Virus record (IMG/VR): IMGVR_UViG_2695420596_000010
From: a virus
Lineage: Duplodnaviria; Heunggongvirae; Uroviricota; Caudoviricetes
Length of the DNA: 5,938 bases
Direction: 5' to 3' (one strand)
Position numbers and translations under genes: made by a program. Positions 1-5,938 of this stretch are shown here, piece by piece. The first letter of the stretch is position 1; every line of letters starts with the position of its first letter. The notes below the pieces were generated by a model that was given only the letters and a program-made list of their open reading frames with translations, searched no databases and was not told the origin of the DNA.

Positions 1-678
1 GGTATAACAATCGACGATTGCTGGAAAGGCTGGGCCATACTCCTCCGGCAGAAGCAGAAAAAGCTTATTATGCTTCCATCGGAAACGATGATCTGGCAGC
101 CTGAGTTCACAGATAAAACACTCTCCAGGAAACCCGGGGCGGTTCACAGAGGATTCGCCAGAATTCTCGGACGAAAAAGGTTTTATATTGTCTTTTGTTA
201 GTTTGTCTTTTGTGTTTACCTGATTCGGGTAAACGCCTTTACCTGATTTGGGTAAACTTTTTTTACCTGATTCAGGTAAATTTACCTCTTTCAGGTAAAC
301 TTTATTTTTCTTACCTGATTCGGGTAATGTTGACCATTCACTGACCACATTATTAATGCCGATATTCCGCCCGCTCTGAATAAGAATCCCACGCTTTACC
401 AGAACGCTTTTTGCAGCAGAACACTTGTGCGGCAATATCCCGGTCAATTCGGAAAGTTGCTCGTTGCTCACCCAATCCAGTCTTTTATTAAAGCCATATG
501 TTTTGCGCATGACAGCCAGGAAGACCAGAAGCTGGTGCTGTGTTAATCCGGCCAGCATCACAGCTTCCAGCAACTCATTTGCAATGCGCGTATAACCATC
601 GTCGAGATCTGCCACGCGCCGCTCCTTTTGTGCCACATCCGGCACTGGAAAATTGAATATCTCAGCAGTGTTTGCCAT
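1..678 (-). CDS. Replication initiator, lambda O-like (N-terminal iteron-binding domain plus linker); partial, 3' end lies beyond the left edge of the window
   Basis: Manual translation of the minus strand from ATG (complement of 676-678), preceded by GGGAGG (complement of ~683-688), gives MANTAEIFNFPVPDVAQKERRVADLDDGYTRIANELLEAVMLAGLTQHQLLVFLAVMRKTYGFNKRLDWVSNEQLSELTGILPHKCSAAKSVLVKRGILIQSGRNIGINNVVSEWSTLPESGKK... with no stop before position 1. This resembles my recollection of the lambda O N-terminus (ADLDDGY..., LRKTYGWNK, SQLSE motifs). The iterons lie inside the coding sequence, as in lambda O. Absent from the supplied ORF track, presumably because the ORF is open at the window edge. 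Confidence 0.8.
   Translation of the reverse strand, partial: MANTAEIFNFPVPDVAQKERRVADLDDGYTRIANELLEAVMLAGLTQHQLLVFLAVMRKTYGFNKRLDWVSNEQLSELTGILPHKCSAAKSVLVKRGILIQSGRNIGINNVVSEWSTLPESGKKNKVYLKEVNLPESGKKSLPKSGKGVYPNQVNTKDKLTKDNIKPFSSENSGESSVNRPGFPGECFICELRLPDHRFRWKHNKLFLLLPEEYGPAFPAIVDCYT
181..214. other. AT-rich tract flanking the iterons (candidate DNA-unwinding element of the origin)
   Basis: ttttatattgtcttttgttagtttgtcttttgtg is strongly AT-rich and contains two copies of TTGTCTTTTGT. It lies on the gene-distal side of the iterons, the same relative arrangement as in ori-lambda. Confidence 0.5.
215..328. repeat. Origin iteron array: five ~19-bp direct repeats, each an internal dyad TTACC-N7-GGTAA
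   Basis: Read directly: TTTACCTGATTCGGGTAAAC (215-234), TTTACCTGATTTGGGTAAAC (238-257), TTTACCTGATTCAGGTAAA (262-280), TTTACCTCTTTCAGGTAAAC (281-300), TTACCTGATTCGGGTAAT (311-328). Spacing is 19-30 bp. Located within the O-like gene like ori-lambda iterons. Confidence 0.8.
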
Positions 679-764
679 AATTCCTCCCGCAATGAGTGTG
701 TTACGATTTGCACCTGAAAGTCGGTTCTGTTCGCGCAGACCGGCTTTCGCCATTTCCGAACCTG

Positions 765-1310
765 TCATATTGCCCCCAGCATGGTGGTGACCATCGCCAT
801 CAGTGGACCAGCCAAATCCGGGTCCACACGAAACATCGACACAATGCCTTCACTCATCTCCTTCAGTTTCTGGTGGCGTGGTGCGTTGAGAATGACAGCC
901 TGTTTTGCCTCACTGAGTTCCTTTTCCATTTCAGCCAGCCGAGCCATGTAGCTATCCTGCTCAACCAGGTGGCCGCGATATTCCAGCGGTAGTACCGCCA
1001 GAATTGCCGGGGTCAGTTCACGCACGTTATTTCGGTATTTTTCAGAATCGAATTTGTTATCGAGGAAGCGGAACAGCTTCTGGCGTGCACGGCTGACATC
1101 ATCAGGGAAATCGATGGTGCCGCCGCCCTGCTCCCGATACTCATTCACAATGAGTGCGGCAACAACATCCTGATTATCTGCAGCCGACCAGGCGCGAACG
1201 GCATCACGGATTTTTTCGTGGCCTGGCGCCTGTTTTGTTTGAGAACGATTTATCACCGCAGTCGGGCTAAATCCGCTAGTCTGTTGGTATGTAAGTGGTT
1301 GCATAGTCAT
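765..1310 (-). CDS. YdaT-like / CII-type phage regulatory protein (transcriptional regulator in the cII position)
   Basis: 181-aa ORF with ATG start and AAGG a few nt upstream, lying downstream of the cro-like gene on the same strand. Motifs EYREQGGG and PAILAVLPLEYRGHL resemble what I recall of YdaT-family proteins of Rac-type prophages. Family assignment is from memory only. Confidence 0.55.
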   Translation of the reverse strand: MTMQPLTYQQTSGFSPTAVINRSQTKQAPGHEKIRDAVRAWSAADNQDVVAALIVNEYREQGGGTIDFPDDVSRARQKLFRFLDNKFDSEKYRNNVRELTPAILAVLPLEYRGHLVEQDSYMARLAEMEKELSEAKQAVILNAPRHQKLKEMSEGIVSMFRVDPDLAGPLMAMVTTMLGAI

Positions 1311-1334
1311 TGCCTTATCAGTTAACGCCGCAGT

Positions 1335-1568
1335 TTAGGCGGCAGAATTACTCGCGTTAAACAATGGTGCGAGGTCGGGACGAATATCTGCTGGTTTAAT
1401 CTTTCCACCAGTGGCTGAGACAATTTTCATTACATAGCGGGCATCAATTCCGCCACCGTGTAGCCAACGCCAAACTGTGGGTTGGGCTACACCGCATAGA
1501 TCTGCCAGTCGTTTTTGACTACCTGTAATACTGATTGCGAGTTGAATGGTTTGATTTGTCATTATCAA
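1335..1568 (-). CDS. Cro/YdaS-like HTH DNA-binding protein (lytic-side repressor)
   Basis: 77-aa ORF divergent from the CI-like gene. Sequence GSQKRLADLCGVAQPTVWRWLHGG is a typical Cro/YdaS-type HTH. The track start at 1568 is a TTG codon; the in-frame ATG at 1560-1562 (MTNQ...) is the more likely start. Confidence 0.7.
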   Translation of the reverse strand: MIMTNQTIQLAISITGSQKRLADLCGVAQPTVWRWLHGGGIDARYVMKIVSATGGKIKPADIRPDLAPLFNASNSAA

Positions 1569-1593
1569 TTCCTATTGGTATTGCAATGAATGA

Positions 1594-1622
1594 ATAATAG
1601 CAATGCGTATTAATCCAAGCAA
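1594..1622 (-). promoter_or_regulatory. Candidate pR-like sigma70 promoter for the cro-like operon
   Basis: On the minus strand: -35 TTGCTT (complement of 1617-1622), 17-bp spacer, -10 TATTAT (complement of 1594-1599). The dyad at 1596-1611 overlaps the -10 and spacer. Found by eye, not scored. Confidence 0.4.
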
Positions 1623-1636
1623 TAGCAAAACGTGTT

Positions 1637-1665
1637 TTGACCATCAATACGCAAGCGTATAAATT
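1637..1665 (+). promoter_or_regulatory. Candidate pRM-like promoter producing a leaderless CI-like mRNA
   Basis: -35 TTGACC (1637-1642), 17-bp spacer, -10 TAAATT (1660-1665). The predicted start falls at about 1672-1673, on the ATG at 1673, and no Shine-Dalgarno precedes that ATG. The dyad at 1647-1660 overlaps the spacer. Confidence 0.4.
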
Positions 1666-1672
1666 AAAACTT

Positions 1673-2365
1673 ATGAAAAAAGAAACTCTTGCTGATCGCT
1701 TAAACCTAGCGATGGAACAATCTGGAATGTCTCAAGGCGCTCTTGCAAAGGCGTCTGGCGTAGCTCAACCCACAATCTGGAGACTGACAAGCGGCAACGC
1801 TCGCGGCTCAACAAAAATTGTTGAAATAGCTAATGCATTGGGTGTTCGAACAGAATGGCTCTCATCAGGCATAGGCCCGATGAGAAATGACGGTCAACAA
1901 TCAGGGAAGCCTGCTGTCAGCCATTCAAAATACTTCAAAATTGACGTTCTTGATATAGAAGTCAGTGCCGGGCCGGGAGTCATCAACCGTGAGTTTGTAG
2001 AAGTTCTACGCTCGGTTGAGTACTCGTTTGACGATGCTCGTCACATGTTCGATGGTAGGAAGGCAGAAAATATCCGCATCATTAACGTACGCGGTGACAG
2101 CATGTCAGGAACGATCGAACCAGGTGATCTTCTGTTCGTTGATATCACGGTTAAATCTTTCGACGGTGATGGTATCTATGCGTTTCTGTATGACGACACA
2201 GCCCATGTAAAGCGCCTGCAAATGATGAAGGATAAGCTGCTAGTTATCTCTGATAACAAGAGCTACTCACCGTGGGACCCGATCGAGAAAGACGAGATGA
2301 ACCGGGTATTCATCTTCGGGAAAGTCATCGGAAGCATGCCGCAGACGTATAGGAAGCATGGGTAG
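1673..2365 (+). CDS. CI-like prophage repressor: N-terminal XRE-type HTH plus C-terminal S24 (LexA-like) autopeptidase domain
   Basis: The track ORF 1637..2365 begins at a TTG; the first ATG is 1673 (MKKETLADRLNLAMEQSGMSQGALAKASGVAQPTIWRL = HTH). The C-terminal half has the S24 signatures: a candidate Ala-Gly cleavage site (EVSAGPG), the serine motif RGDSMSGTIEPGDLLFVD and the lysine motif HVKRL. This implies RecA/SOS-inducible autocleavage. Confidence 0.85.
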   Translation: MKKETLADRLNLAMEQSGMSQGALAKASGVAQPTIWRLTSGNARGSTKIVEIANALGVRTEWLSSGIGPMRNDGQQSGKPAVSHSKYFKIDVLDIEVSAGPGVINREFVEVLRSVEYSFDDARHMFDGRKAENIRIINVRGDSMSGTIEPGDLLFVDITVKSFDGDGIYAFLYDDTAHVKRLQMMKDKLLVISDNKSYSPWDPIEKDEMNRVFIFGKVIGSMPQTYRKHG

Positions 2366-2476
2366 TGAAGGACGTGTCAACTCTATTTTGTAAGCTATCC
2401 AGACTCACAGTTGCAGATCGACGAGTAACTTACATACAGCACAAAAAAACAATATGCACGTGCTTTTAGACTAGAC

Positions 2477-2491
2477 TTACCATAATGGTAA
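2477..2491. promoter_or_regulatory. Palindrome TTACC-ATAAT-GGTAA at the 5' end of the toxin gene; candidate autoregulatory operator of the TAC operon
   Basis: Perfect 5-bp inverted arms separated by 5 bp, overlapping the ATG at 2485. MqsA-family antitoxins are known to bind short palindromes in their own promoters; the assignment here is inference. Confidence 0.4.
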
Positions 2492-2895
2492 CAAGTATGA
2501 TTCTTAGCAGATATGTGGGAACTCCTCCCCGTGATGGCGAGGACAGAAAGATTCAAGGTGGTCCGCTTTATTTAGATATCATTGATTTGATTGATGAATG
2601 TGACACACTGCCTTGGACTAGACGGTGTATCAGGGATGTTCAATCGCTTTCTTTAGATGCAGATGACATCAAATCTATGGTGATAAAAGCAGTCACTAAA
2701 GGGAGATTTCTAGGTTCAGAATGGTGTCAAGGCAGTAAACCAGGTGTATGGGCAGCTTGTGATGCTTATAGCTTTGAGCACTCATTTTGGTGCCAAGCTA
2801 TGCATAAAGAACTTAATAACGAGTTCTACATTAAATTTTTTGTAAACATTACTGGCAATGTAGTGCTTACAGTATCTCTTCATCTCTCTAATTGA
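2485..2895 (+). CDS. MqsR-like toxin (type II toxin-antitoxin toxin, RelE/MqsR-fold mRNA interferase family)
   Basis: 136-aa ORF directly upstream of an MqsA-like antitoxin. By eye it aligns with E. coli MqsR (PLYLDIIDLI...LSLDADD..., EFYIKFFVNITGNVVLTVS versus MqsR QVYLKITVIHDVLIVSF). Toxin-before-antitoxin order is characteristic of mqsRA. The start is uncertain: 2485 has no clear RBS and 2497 is an in-frame alternative. The region is AT-rich. Confidence 0.6.
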   Translation: MVTSMILSRYVGTPPRDGEDRKIQGGPLYLDIIDLIDECDTLPWTRRCIRDVQSLSLDADDIKSMVIKAVTKGRFLGSEWCQGSKPGVWAACDAYSFEHSFWCQAMHKELNNEFYIKFFVNITGNVVLTVSLHLSN

Positions 2896-2919
2896 GTGAT
2901 GATAAATGAGGATTTTTAT

Positions 2920-3507
2920 ATGAGAAACAACAACATATGTCCAGTTTGTGGTGTAGGTCATCTCACCGTGGAGATGGAGTATGATGATGTTACTTATAAA
3001 GGGGAAACAAAAAATCTCCCAATAAGGTTTTCTGTGTGTGATCAATGTGGTTCGGAAACTGCCACACCAGTCGATTTACGAGAAAACAAACGAATTTTCA
3101 ATGAATACAAAAAGTCTATCGATGGACTTTTAACAGGAAAAGAATTAAAAAAAATTAGAACTGAAGTATGGATGATAACCCAGCAAAAGGCATCCTCTAT
3201 ATTTGGTGGGGGGCCTAAGGCATTTTCCAAGTATGAATCTGATGATGTCATTCAATCAGAAGCAATGGATAAACTGATGCGTTTAGCAGCAGAAGTTCCT
3301 GATGCATTCAAAAGGTTACGGGAATTATCTGGCGAAATCAAAGTTGAAAGAACAGTCTCATCATCTAAATCTTTACCTATATGGAAATCTGAAGCAAAAG
3401 CACAATTTGAAAACGATGATCAGGGATTTGACAGCAAATCACCAGCCCAAACAAAAATGAATCAAACATCAATAAAGATAAAAACTGTTGCTAAGCGGGT
3501 AGCATGA
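2920..3507 (+). CDS. MqsA-like antitoxin: N-terminal zinc-ribbon, central XRE-type HTH, and a ~60-70-aa C-terminal extension (candidate chaperone-addiction segment)
   Basis: Motifs CPVCGVGHL and VCDQCGSE (zinc ribbon), then ITQQKASSIFGGGPKAFSKYESDD, closely resembling the MqsA HTH (LTQKEASEIFGGGVNAFSRYEKG). GAGGA (2908-2912) sits 7 nt upstream of ATG 2920. The track ORF begins at GTG 2896, immediately after the toxin stop (2893-2895). The C-terminal tail (from ~3300) has no counterpart in the 131-aa E. coli MqsA. Confidence 0.8.
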   Translation: MRNNNICPVCGVGHLTVEMEYDDVTYKGETKNLPIRFSVCDQCGSETATPVDLRENKRIFNEYKKSIDGLLTGKELKKIRTEVWMITQQKASSIFGGGPKAFSKYESDDVIQSEAMDKLMRLAAEVPDAFKRLRELSGEIKVERTVSSSKSLPIWKSEAKAQFENDDQGFDSKSPAQTKMNQTSIKIKTVAKRVA

Positions 3508-4007
3508 TGAATGAACTTCTTAGATCAGCAATAGACGCATTATCAATAATGCATATCAATATCAGAGAATCTAACTTTGCTTTTTCTGAAGGGTATAATA
3601 GCTTTAACTTCAACAGCATAAATAAGCAAACACAATCATTTCGTAAGATAAAAAAAATCGAAGCTATTGAATTAGTAAGTGACGATGACTCATTAAAAAA
3701 TGAGCTATATTACTCTTTTCACTACTCAGTTGGGCTTAGATTTATTGCAAAATCCGAAGAAACATCTAAAGACGAAAATGATGTTGATACAATTTTTTCT
3801 ATAGAAGCAATTTTTGAGGCGATATATCGCTCAAAGAGAGAATTATCTAAAGAAGAGTTAGAAGAATTTGCTAAGCAAAATGTAGGTTTTAATGTATGGC
3901 CTTTTTGGCGAGAGTATGTTCAAAACAGCACATCCAGAATGGGAATTACTACAATAGCTATACCATTCTTTAAATTCAATAAATCAGACATACCTTCATT
4001 AGATTAA
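3504..4007 (+). CDS. SecB-like chaperone (third component of a toxin-antitoxin-chaperone module)
   Basis: 167-aa ORF whose ATG overlaps the antitoxin stop (ATGA at 3504-3507), suggesting translational coupling. The C-terminal half aligns by eye with E. coli SecB (TIFSIEAIF versus GIFSIAGI; NVWPFWREYVQNSTSRMGITTIAIPFFKFN versus [29 protein letters not shown]). Confidence 0.7.
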   Translation: MMNELLRSAIDALSIMHINIRESNFAFSEGYNSFNFNSINKQTQSFRKIKKIEAIELVSDDDSLKNELYYSFHYSVGLRFIAKSEETSKDENDVDTIFSIEAIFEAIYRSKRELSKEELEEFAKQNVGFNVWPFWREYVQNSTSRMGITTIAIPFFKFNKSDIPSLD

Positions 4008-4021
4008 ATTCAAATATAACT

Positions 4022-4048
4022 CCCGGCTACCGTGCCGGGTTTTCTTTT
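4022..4048 (+). terminator. Rho-independent terminator of the TAC operon
   Basis: Stem CCCGGC (4022-4027), loop TACCGT, stem GCCGGG (4034-4039), followed by TTTTCTTTT (4040-4048), 15 nt after the chaperone stop codon. Confidence 0.65.
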
Positions 4049-4189
4049 GCCCTCCCCCCATCACACAAACCGTTCAAAAAACCACCACGACCTCACTTCA
4101 GTTATCGCTATGCGATGCAAGTCACAAAATTAATTCTTTTTGCTATCAAACATTTAATATCAAAACACATCAACTAATAGCAATAAGCA

Positions 4190-4218
4190 TTGATATCACC
4201 AATAGCAATAGCTATTAT
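4190..4218 (+). promoter_or_regulatory. Candidate pL-like promoter with overlapping operator dyad (OL-like)
   Basis: -35 TTGATA (4190-4195), 17-bp spacer, -10 TATTAT (4213-4218), reading towards int. The dyad AATAGC-AATA-GCTATT (4201-4216) overlaps the spacer and -10, and matches 13 of 16 positions of the OR-region site AATAGCAATGCGTATT (1596-1611). Confidence 0.5.
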
Positions 4219-4411
4219 CACCATATCGCAACAACACAACGATACGGCAACCACCTGATTCACCGTTGCGATGACCGCTTAGATCCGCAGCTTGAATTTC
4301 AGCAGGCTTCGGGGAGTGCGAGGGATGAAACGGACGCGTGAACGTCGGTGTGACCAGCTGAAATCAACTCAACATTTCATACCTTAGTCGCTTCAACGAG
4401 GCGGCTTAGTT

Positions 4412-4702
4412 ATGACAACCGGCGGCCATCCACCGCCTGAATACGCGCAGAAGTCTTTATATGTTCAGCAGCCCAGCTTACGGGCAGGAGTTTTTATGGT
4501 TCATCAACATTACGGAACGCAGACCGTTAATCGCGGTGCGGTCATGCCAGGAATGCTGGTCAAACGCAAAGATGGTACCTGGACTGCATCAGCTAATTTA
4601 CACGGACGACTTTATCTGCATCGCGGCATTGAGCGCACTTATACCCGTGACTTGCTCGTGGAAGTTTTTCTCGACGGACGCGGCAACGGTCTGAATCACT
4701 AA
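4412..4702 (+). CDS. Hypothetical protein (no recognisable family)
   Basis: 96-aa ORF with ATG and a weak GAGG ~10 nt upstream, between the pL-like promoter and int. No recognisable motif; it is not lambda-Xis-like or N-like. An alternative-frame ORF (4461..4694) overlaps it, so coding status is uncertain. Confidence 0.3.
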   Translation: MTTGGHPPPEYAQKSLYVQQPSLRAGVFMVHQHYGTQTVNRGAVMPGMLVKRKDGTWTASANLHGRLYLHRGIERTYTRDLLVEVFLDGRGNGLNH

Positions 4703-4777
4703 TCCCCTTTCCTGTTTTCCGAATCAGCCTGGCATTCCGCGGGCGATTTTTTCACAGCCATTTTCAGGAGTTCAGCC

Positions 4778-5938
4778 ATGAACGCTTATTACATTCAGGA
4801 TCGTCTTGAGGCTCAGAGCTGGGCGCGTCACTACCAGCAGATCGCCCGTGAAGAGAAAGAGGCAGAACTGGCAGACGACATGGAAAAAGGCCTGCCCCAG
4901 CACCTGTTTGAATCGCTATGTATCGATCATTTGCAACGCCACGGGGCCAGCAAAAAAGCCATTAAAGAGTTTGGATTAGGCAGAGACAGGCGAATCGCAA
5001 TCACTGAAGCTATACAGGCCAACATTGAGTTATTTTCAGGACACAAACACAAGCCTCTGACAGCGAGAATCAACAGTGATAATTCCGTTACGTTACATTC
5101 ATGGCTTGATCGCTACGAAAAAATCCTGGCCAGCAGAGGAATCAAACAGAAGACACTCATAAATTACATGAGCAAAATTAAAGCAATAAGGAGGGGTCTG
5201 CCTGATGCTCCACTTGAAGACATCACCACAAAAGAAATTGCGGCAATGCTCAATGGATACATAAACGAGGGCAAGGCGGCGTCAGCCAAGTTAATCAGAT
5301 CAACACTGAGCGATGCATTCCGAGAGGCAATAGCTGAAGGCCATATAACAACAAACCCTGTCGCTGCCACTCGCGCAGCAAAATCAGAGGTAAGGAGATC
5401 AAGACTTACGGCTGACGAATACCTGAAAATTTATCAAGCAGCAGAATCATCACCATGTTGGCTCAGACTTGCAATGGAACTGGCTGTTGTTACCGGGCAA
5501 CGAGTTGGTGATTTATGCGAAATGAAGTGGTCTGATATCGTAGATGGATATCTTTATGTCGAGCAAAGCAAAACAGGCGTAAAAATTGCCATCCCAACAG
5601 CATTGCATGTTGATGCTCTCGGAATATCAATGAAGGAAACACTTGATAAATGCAAAGAGATTCTTGGCGGAGAAACCATAATTGCATCTACTCGTCGCGA
5701 ACCGCTTTCATCCGGCACAGTATCAAGGTATTTTATGCGCGCACGAAAAGCATCAGGTCTTTCCTTCGAAGGGGATCCGCCTACCTTTCACGAGTTGCGC
5801 AGTTTGTCTGCAAGACTCTATGAGAAGCAGATAAGCGATAAGTTTGCTCAACATCTTCTCGGGCATAAGTCGGACACCATGGCATCACAGTATCGTGATG
5901 ACAGAGGCAGGGAGTGGGACAAAATTGAAATCAAATAA
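4778..5938 (+). CDS. int: Tyrosine site-specific integrase, lambda Int family; catalytic region near-identical to lambda Int, N-terminal ~66 aa unrelated (chimeric)
   Basis: From [38 protein letters not shown]... to the C-terminal ...[49 protein letters not shown] the protein matches my recollection of lambda Int almost residue for residue, including the catalytic motifs (R in GQRVGDL, HELR, LLGH, tyrosine in SQYRDD). The first ~66 aa ([21 protein letters not shown]...) do not match the lambda Int arm-binding domain. AGGAG lies 7 nt upstream of the ATG. Confidence 0.9.

Follow-up and report, generated by a model that had tools for sequence, protein, structure and literature searches.

What is encoded by the long reading frame at the right end of this stretch of viral DNA (5,938 nt, the window in what follows), and can its product still be regarded as an integrase? 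Positions 4778-5938 of the plus strand form a single long ORF of 386 aa that runs from ATG to TAA (ORF list), and a preliminary description had recognized in it a lambda Int body behind an unrelated N-terminus. We consider it highly probable that this ORF is a gam-int fusion and the pseudogene-like scar of one ~4.14 kb deletion that led from gam into int in a decayed prophage at att-lambda. The ORF and its parts are the following:

4766 to 4770, plus strand: Shine-Dalgarno sequence AGGAG of gamS, 7 nt 5' of the ATG, read from the sequence.
4778 to 5938, plus strand: in-frame gam'-'int fusion ORF, from the ORF list and the Pfam families Gam, Arm-DNA-bind_1 (partial), Phage_int_M and Phage_integrase.
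4778 to 4964, plus strand: gam' part, GamS codons 1-62 (equal to GamL 41-102) with L22I and S61A, by blastn, PF06064 and phrog_259.
4963 to 4964, plus strand: deletion junction, a TA common to the gam and int parents, by three-way alignment with lambda gam and lambda int and by the overlap of the blastn matches.
4964 to 5938, plus strand: 'int part, lambda Int 33-356, by blastn, PDB, catalytic residues and AlphaFold2.

The N-terminal part does replace a portion of the arm-binding domain, as had been described, and Int residues 1-32 are lost; it is not unrelated, being derived from Gam, the product of a neighbouring gene in the same operon. PF06064 (Gam) matches fusion residues 1-64 with profile positions 1-64 of 98 (E=1.8e-38), the Gam structures 5mbv and 2uuz align to the protein from residue 1, and residues 1-62 are 97% identical to GamS 1-62, L22I and S61A being the only differences. 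The long N-terminal helix of Gam is present within residues 1-62 (helix predicted for 3-38), and the fusion is not a full-length GamS (98 aa), as the C-terminal 36 residues are absent. A search for other occurrences of this segment had been proposed in the preliminary description and led to Gam by Pfam, PHROGs, PDB and nucleotide matches, and the same four lines rule out an alternative arm-binding domain.

Fusion residues 63-386 correspond to lambda Int 33-356 with D133N, H164P and I248V as the sole substitutions. These are natural variants, because ML35 and other strains have the same int allele, at 100% nucleotide identity, in an intact gene of 356 aa. The catalytic residues R212, K235, H308, R311, H333 and Y342 are kept as fusion residues 242, 265, 338, 341, 363 and 372. 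The near-exact match to lambda Int, catalytic residues included, had been seen correctly, whereas its start had been placed at about residue 67, 4 residues away from the true one at residue 63 (Int K33). Regarding its domains, the int part consists of a remnant of the arm-binding domain and the whole core-binding and catalytic domains: PF09003 (lambda Int arm-binding) matches residues 63-99 with just profile positions 38-74 of 74 left, the core-binding domain is covered by PF22022 and PF02899 on residues 111-201 and by PDB entries 2oxo and 1p7d, and the catalytic domain by PF00589 (E=2e-40). The arm-type DNA-binding domain (Int 1-64) is incomplete, since Int 1-32 is replaced. The Int structures 5j0n, 1z1g and 1z1b align to residues 61-386, the match to 1kjk is limited to residues 30-64, and PHROGs give the same two-way split of the protein into a gam-like host nuclease inhibitor and an integrase. 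A scan of the window against Rfam yielded no matches.

How did the two genes come to be joined? By blastn, window positions 4696-4964 match the gam region of lambda (J02459) from 33193 down to 32926 with 96.3% identity, and positions 4963-5938 match the int region from 28787 down to 27812 with 99.6% identity (4 mismatches in 976 nt). Both segments are collinear and in the order and orientation of lambda, and the two matches overlap by 2 nt; when the window is aligned with both lambda gam and lambda int, the TA is the sole homology around the breakpoints. Relative to lambda, ~4.14 kb between gam and int is absent, i.e. the last third of gam, bet, exo, orf60a, orf63, orf61, ea22, ea8.5, xis and int codons 1-32, and this size is deduced from lambda and two different relatives, because the direct parent was not found. 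The locus had already been read as a deletion or recombination scar, and the abutting of collinear gam and int on a 2-bp microhomology, with the interval between them gone, bears this out. The joint had been placed just upstream of the string AAAGAGTTTGG, which is right, as this string begins at the joint itself; the coordinate given for it, ~4970, has to be corrected to 4964. None of 199 matching phage genomes spans the gam-int junction.

As for the mechanism, an Int-mediated recombination at a secondary site was considered and rejected: the sequences at the junction, judged by eye, do not resemble the att core, and for this reason microhomology end-joining or slippage is favoured. In the scenario that we propose, a lambdoid phage of mosaic composition, equipped with an int/xis/att module of the lambda type, would have lysogenised its host at att-lambda, and later one illegitimate-recombination deletion of ~4.14 kb would have occurred inside the early-left operon. 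Such a deletion would have joined gamS codon 62 to int codon 33 over the TA microhomology, in frame by chance, with a loss of the gam 3' end, bet, exo, the small b-region ORFs, xis, the int promoter and int codons 1-32. The product, if made, would come from a repressor-controlled pL-like promoter after induction, and it would begin with Gam's long N-terminal helix, Gam's C-terminal third being absent, followed by an Int that has kept its core-binding and catalytic domains and has lost its N-terminal tail and most of the arm-reading beta-sheet. Because arm binding and Xis would both be missing, no excisive intasome should form on attL and attR, and the element would be locked in the chromosome.

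The chromosomal setting can be seen in E. coli E2 (NZ_CP104509), to which window positions 147-5938 are 99.98% identical. There, a defective prophage of ~18.6 kb lies between ybhC and ybhB-bioA, i.e. at the classical lambda attachment site, and the window is the int-proximal third of this element. The chromosomal gene order around att-lambda is normal. Att sites beyond the right end of the window had been suggested as a point to examine, and attL (P'-core-B) is indeed found there, with attR at the other end of the prophage. The attL begins inside the int 3' end, is identical to the lambda P'-core at 137 of 137 positions, and has the exact 15-bp core 75-89 nt past the last base of the window. 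One part of it lies within the window:

5896 to 5936, no strand assigned: P' arm-type Int-binding sites of attL, equal to lambda 27814-27854 ('int 4' in J02459), overlapping the int 3' end.

The attR at the opposite end has a core with 14 of 15 identical positions and a recognisable P arm. In this region (positions 3070-3286 of the E2 locus L002), the P arm is near-identical to lambda around P1/P2 and the core carries one change (ACTTTTTTATACTAA), and the stretch from P2 to the core, which in lambda holds the Xis, Fis and IHF sites, has clearly diverged and contains several indels. Between the att sites, the element contains a repressor/cro/YdaT immunity region, O, P and ren, then a DLP12-like set (emrE, ybcK-ybcO, ninE, rusA, quuD, porin), IS elements and an AraC-family gene; genes for lysis, head or tail are absent from the E2 element. 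At positions 3074-21727 of the same locus, ren, emrE, ybcK-ybcO, rusA, ylcG, quuD, an nmpC-like porin gene and the AraC-family gene adjoin the int remnant. At the argU locus of E2 (L007 40613-41496), argU is directly followed by envY, and DLP12, ompT and appY are absent from their usual site.

The lack of an Xis-like ORF, noted earlier for the sequence itself, extends to the complete element: tblastn with lambda Xis gave no match in the window or in the 41.6 kb E2 locus (L002) that holds the whole prophage, and in this locus the lambda Ea8.5, Ea22, orf61, orf63, orf60a, Exo and Bet queries gave none either. The same queries match ML35 and 442/2 at 94-99%, lambda Xis with 98.6% in ML35. No excisionase is annotated in E2, and tblastn over the whole prophage and the RefSeq annotation together rule out an xis gene located just outside the window. 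Excision needs Int and Xis, and mutations of the recombinase or the att sites 'ground' prophages (PMC6379469). With its truncated int and its deleted xis, the element, which has also lost all lysis and morphogenesis genes, is by its lesion a grounded prophage in the sense of that work, as the preliminary description had supposed.

What alternatives exist for a deletion within one prophage? The joint could in principle have formed between two elements, e.g. between a DLP12-type phage or prophage that provided the gam side and a resident att-lambda prophage that provided the int side, but we regard this as improbable. In favour of such an origin, window 147-4964, the gam side, shares 99.9% identity with a prophage that 442/2 carries at argU/intD, and, in addition, argU is empty in E2 and the DLP12-like gene set is instead at att-lambda. 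The 442/2 prophage runs on past the breakpoint with a full-length gam, bet, exo and orf60a, and the int side (window 4963-5938) is 100% identical to the att-lambda prophage of ML35, in which xis, ea8.5 and ea22 precede int. None of the closest relatives examined (442/2, W24 and ML35) joins both sides at att-lambda with an intact gam-to-int interval. However, the same kil-gam-immunity module is present in W24 at a different site and with a different integration module that has a torI-type xis, and a combination of this module with varied integration modules indicates that module sharing is normal lambdoid mosaicism. Furthermore, the ML35 att-lambda prophage with its intact int and xis also has DLP12-like late genes, the undisturbed gene order at att-lambda and the presence of both att sites do not point to an exchange, and a transfer from argU would take at least two further crossovers.

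The gam-int junction of the window is found in 12 of 5,426 complete E. coli genomes, and 11 of these, mostly chicken isolates, from Korea, Japan and the USA, have it in identical form. The remaining one, Z1323CEC0014, is a one-base variant with the same joint, in which T4962G leads to I62S; it has another int allele, and its 386-aa frame is still open. There are 29 differences across the window in this allele, and in the region around its joint (L003 9461-9821) the cluster of int-allele differences begins right at the junction. An independent origin of this junction was judged unlikely, as both breakpoints would need to land within 1-3 nt of those of the window, and it is simpler to assume a single event that was followed by a point change or a conversion tract. 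In a 13th genome, EC01, the joint (L004 9461-9680) is 148 bp shorter and leads from gam codon 28 to about int codon 47 over an AG microhomology, out of frame, with the ORF cut to 44 aa; this joint arose either independently or through a second deletion of 148 bp. The joints of both strains are the equivalents of window 4860-5010. Because the EC01 variant is frameshifted, the ORF is dispensable in at least one lineage.

The exact 386-aa protein is furthermore found on 311 public contigs under the name 'integrase' (NCBI, ENA, UniRef), and other gene calls with the same joint peptide share its cluster. PGAP (RefSeq) annotates the locus as two pseudogenes, a Gam that lacks its C-terminus and an integrase that lacks its N-terminus. 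No paper describing this particular fusion was found in literature searches that were made for background and not for the fusion by name. Public annotation already covers the two halves, the att sites and the status as pseudogenes, and no new mechanism is involved.

Upstream of the fusion, two features are of importance for its possible expression:

4175 to 4224, plus strand: probable oL/pL, a 50-nt direct repeat (D2), 72% identical to 1595-1644 in the cro-cI operator region.
4496 to 4702, plus strand: kil (FtsZ inhibitor), phrog_294 (E=4.8e-36), directly upstream of the fusion and in the same operon.

The best sigma-70-like site in the window, TTGATA-17-TATTAT at 4190-4218, agrees at 10 of 12 positions, and AATAGCAAT motifs cluster at 4175-4224. 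Judged by these motifs, positions 4175-4224 are probably the oL/pL that drives kil and gam'-'int, and the fusion would come last in a short pL operon under repressor control, with no N-like antiterminator ORF between this site and kil. The kil product reaches 58.1 bits with NCBIfam NF008465, under the curated cut-off of 92, and PGAP names a variant kil allele 'cell division inhibitor'. The int promoter of lambda sits within xis, and here it would have been deleted along with xis.

Between the repressor gene and the oL/pL-like region, which is the slot of rexAB in lambda, three genes at 2497-4007 encode a hypothetical protein of 133 aa, an antitoxin of the MqsA family (TIGR03830, E=7e-33) that is extended by ~60 aa at its C-terminus, and a chaperone resembling SecB, which is so called after its PGAP name and has a weak Pfam SecB match (E=0.008) and a match to phrog_16879. 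The putative toxin of the module has no Pfam, NCBIfam or PHROG family match. The module looks like a toxin-antitoxin-chaperone (TAC) system of the MqsRAC type, and a strong bidirectional hairpin at 4022-4039 closes it. The E. coli MqsRAC system has been reported to defend against phage T2 (bioRxiv 10.1101/2022.05.12.491691). At the left end of the window, positions 1-146 comprise the 3' end of an IS3-family transposase (its protein ending …YNNRRLLERLGHTPPAEAEKAYYASIGNDDLAA) and a terminal repeat ending GGGGCGGTTCA, within an O-like replication gene. As this IS3-family insertion is missing at that position in E2, Z1323CEC0014 and 442/2, the window comes from a sister strain with one extra inactivating insertion. 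Inside the same O-like gene, five tandem near-palindromic iterons of ~19 nt (TTTACCTGATTCGGGTAAA) with a spacing of 19-29 nt at 215-336 appear to constitute a lambdoid replication origin.

What could the protein do if it were made? Arm sites are bound by Int 1-64, and with Int 65-356 alone attP x attB recombination is 0%, also when the N-terminal domain is supplied in trans; Int 65-356 retains core-site binding and cleavage and the resolution of Holliday junctions (PMC9791396). By analogy, this literature on truncated Int predicts that neither attL x attR nor attP x attB recombination would be carried out by the fusion. The fusion is likely unable to bind arm sites, with Int residues 33-64 still being there, and the element would be unable to excise alone. 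In an AlphaFold2 model that was based on 50 sequences and has a mean pLDDT of 84, the Gam helix extends over residues 3-38, the core-binding and catalytic domains have a pLDDT >90, and the remnant of the N-terminal domain has no beta-sheet; junction residues 42-67, with a pLDDT <50, are predicted to be disordered. On the Gam side, GamS purifies and binds RecBCD as a dimer, and its N-terminal helix plugs the ssDNA channel of RecB (PMC5218532). Without the C-terminal 36 residues of Gam, an inhibition of RecBCD by the fusion is doubtful.

Some aspects nevertheless speak against the fusion being a scar. The frame is open in 12 of the 13 junction-bearing complete genomes and on hundreds of contigs, the catalytic residues are there, and a ribosome-binding site and a plausible promoter precede it, so expression and a residual or new activity are possible. 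Taken further, the fusion could be a selected working protein, in which an arm-independent Int core is tethered to a RecBCD-binding helix, or which acts as a dominant-negative intasome poison against incoming lambda-type phages. We hold such a selected function to be very unlikely, and we give equally little credence to the specific case that Gam(1-62)-Int(33-356) is made from the pL-like promoter on repressor cleavage and is useful. Its open frame with all catalytic residues, the Shine-Dalgarno sequence, the pL-like promoter and the 311 contigs would agree with this, as would the allele of Z1323CEC0014, in which the 386-aa frame has stayed open despite 29 differences in the window, the core-site and Holliday-junction activities of the isolated Int C-terminal domain (PMC9791396), and the fact that Gam's N-terminal helix is just the part that enters the RecB ssDNA channel (PMC5218532). 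But the identity of 11 genomes across the junction fits recent common descent, the EC01 version is frameshifted, a joint falls in frame one time in three, GamS binds RecBCD in dimeric form (PMC5218532) and the last 36 Gam residues are missing from the fusion, the junction is predicted to be disordered, and PGAP calls pseudogenes. If the idea were true, an arm-blind dominant-negative subunit might spoil the integration or excision of superinfecting lambda-type phages, or, alternatively, the Gam helix might carry an Int core free of regulation to DNA ends bound by RecBCD. That the chimera arose as an error of assembly or sequencing can practically be dismissed, as 11 complete genomes from Korea, Japan and the USA, each assembled independently, share the identical junction, two more have variants of it, and the exact protein is found on 311 contigs.

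With the ORF read as the scar of a deletion, it has no place among functional or novel integrases, and the pseudogene call of PGAP is better than the name 'integrase'. As judged from its sequence, it would not qualify as a functional heterobivalent integrase, since a complete arm-binding domain and an Xis partner, both of them defining features, are missing. The locus offers a clean, datable case of a lambdoid prophage grounded by a single microhomology deletion, i.e. of ordinary prophage decay, in which the host keeps the immunity region and the defence-type toxin-antitoxin-chaperone module, and excision, recombination, lysis and virion genes are lost. A helper phage that provides lambda Int and Xis might excise the element, which is conceivable because attL and attR are both intact, and this would be relevant just for tracking the mobility of the cargo of the element.

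With lambda Int (PDB 1z1b, 1z1g, 5j0n), the fusion shares the core-binding and catalytic domains, the R-K-H-R-H-Y active site and an attL next door, but in contrast to lambda Int it has lost residues 1-32, roughly one half of the arm-binding domain, as well as the xis partner and the int promoter region, and it has 62 foreign N-terminal residues. With lambda GamS (PDB 2uuz, 5mbv), it shares the start codon, the ribosome-binding site and the place after kil, but not the C-terminal 36 residues. In the DE3 prophage, int is likewise split, as seen in two rows of the genome matches (H92, H99); there, int is interrupted by the insertion of T7 RNA polymerase gene 1. The element resembles the grounded prophages DLP12, Rac, Qin and e14 (PMC6379469) in being fixed in the chromosome, in the loss of recombinase function and in having decayed further through IS elements and deletions. 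In gene content it is like DLP12 (emrE, ybcK-ybcO, rusA, quuD, porin), whereas its site is att-lambda and not argU, and in contrast to those grounded prophages the lesion is a specific gam-int deletion that has left one long open frame.
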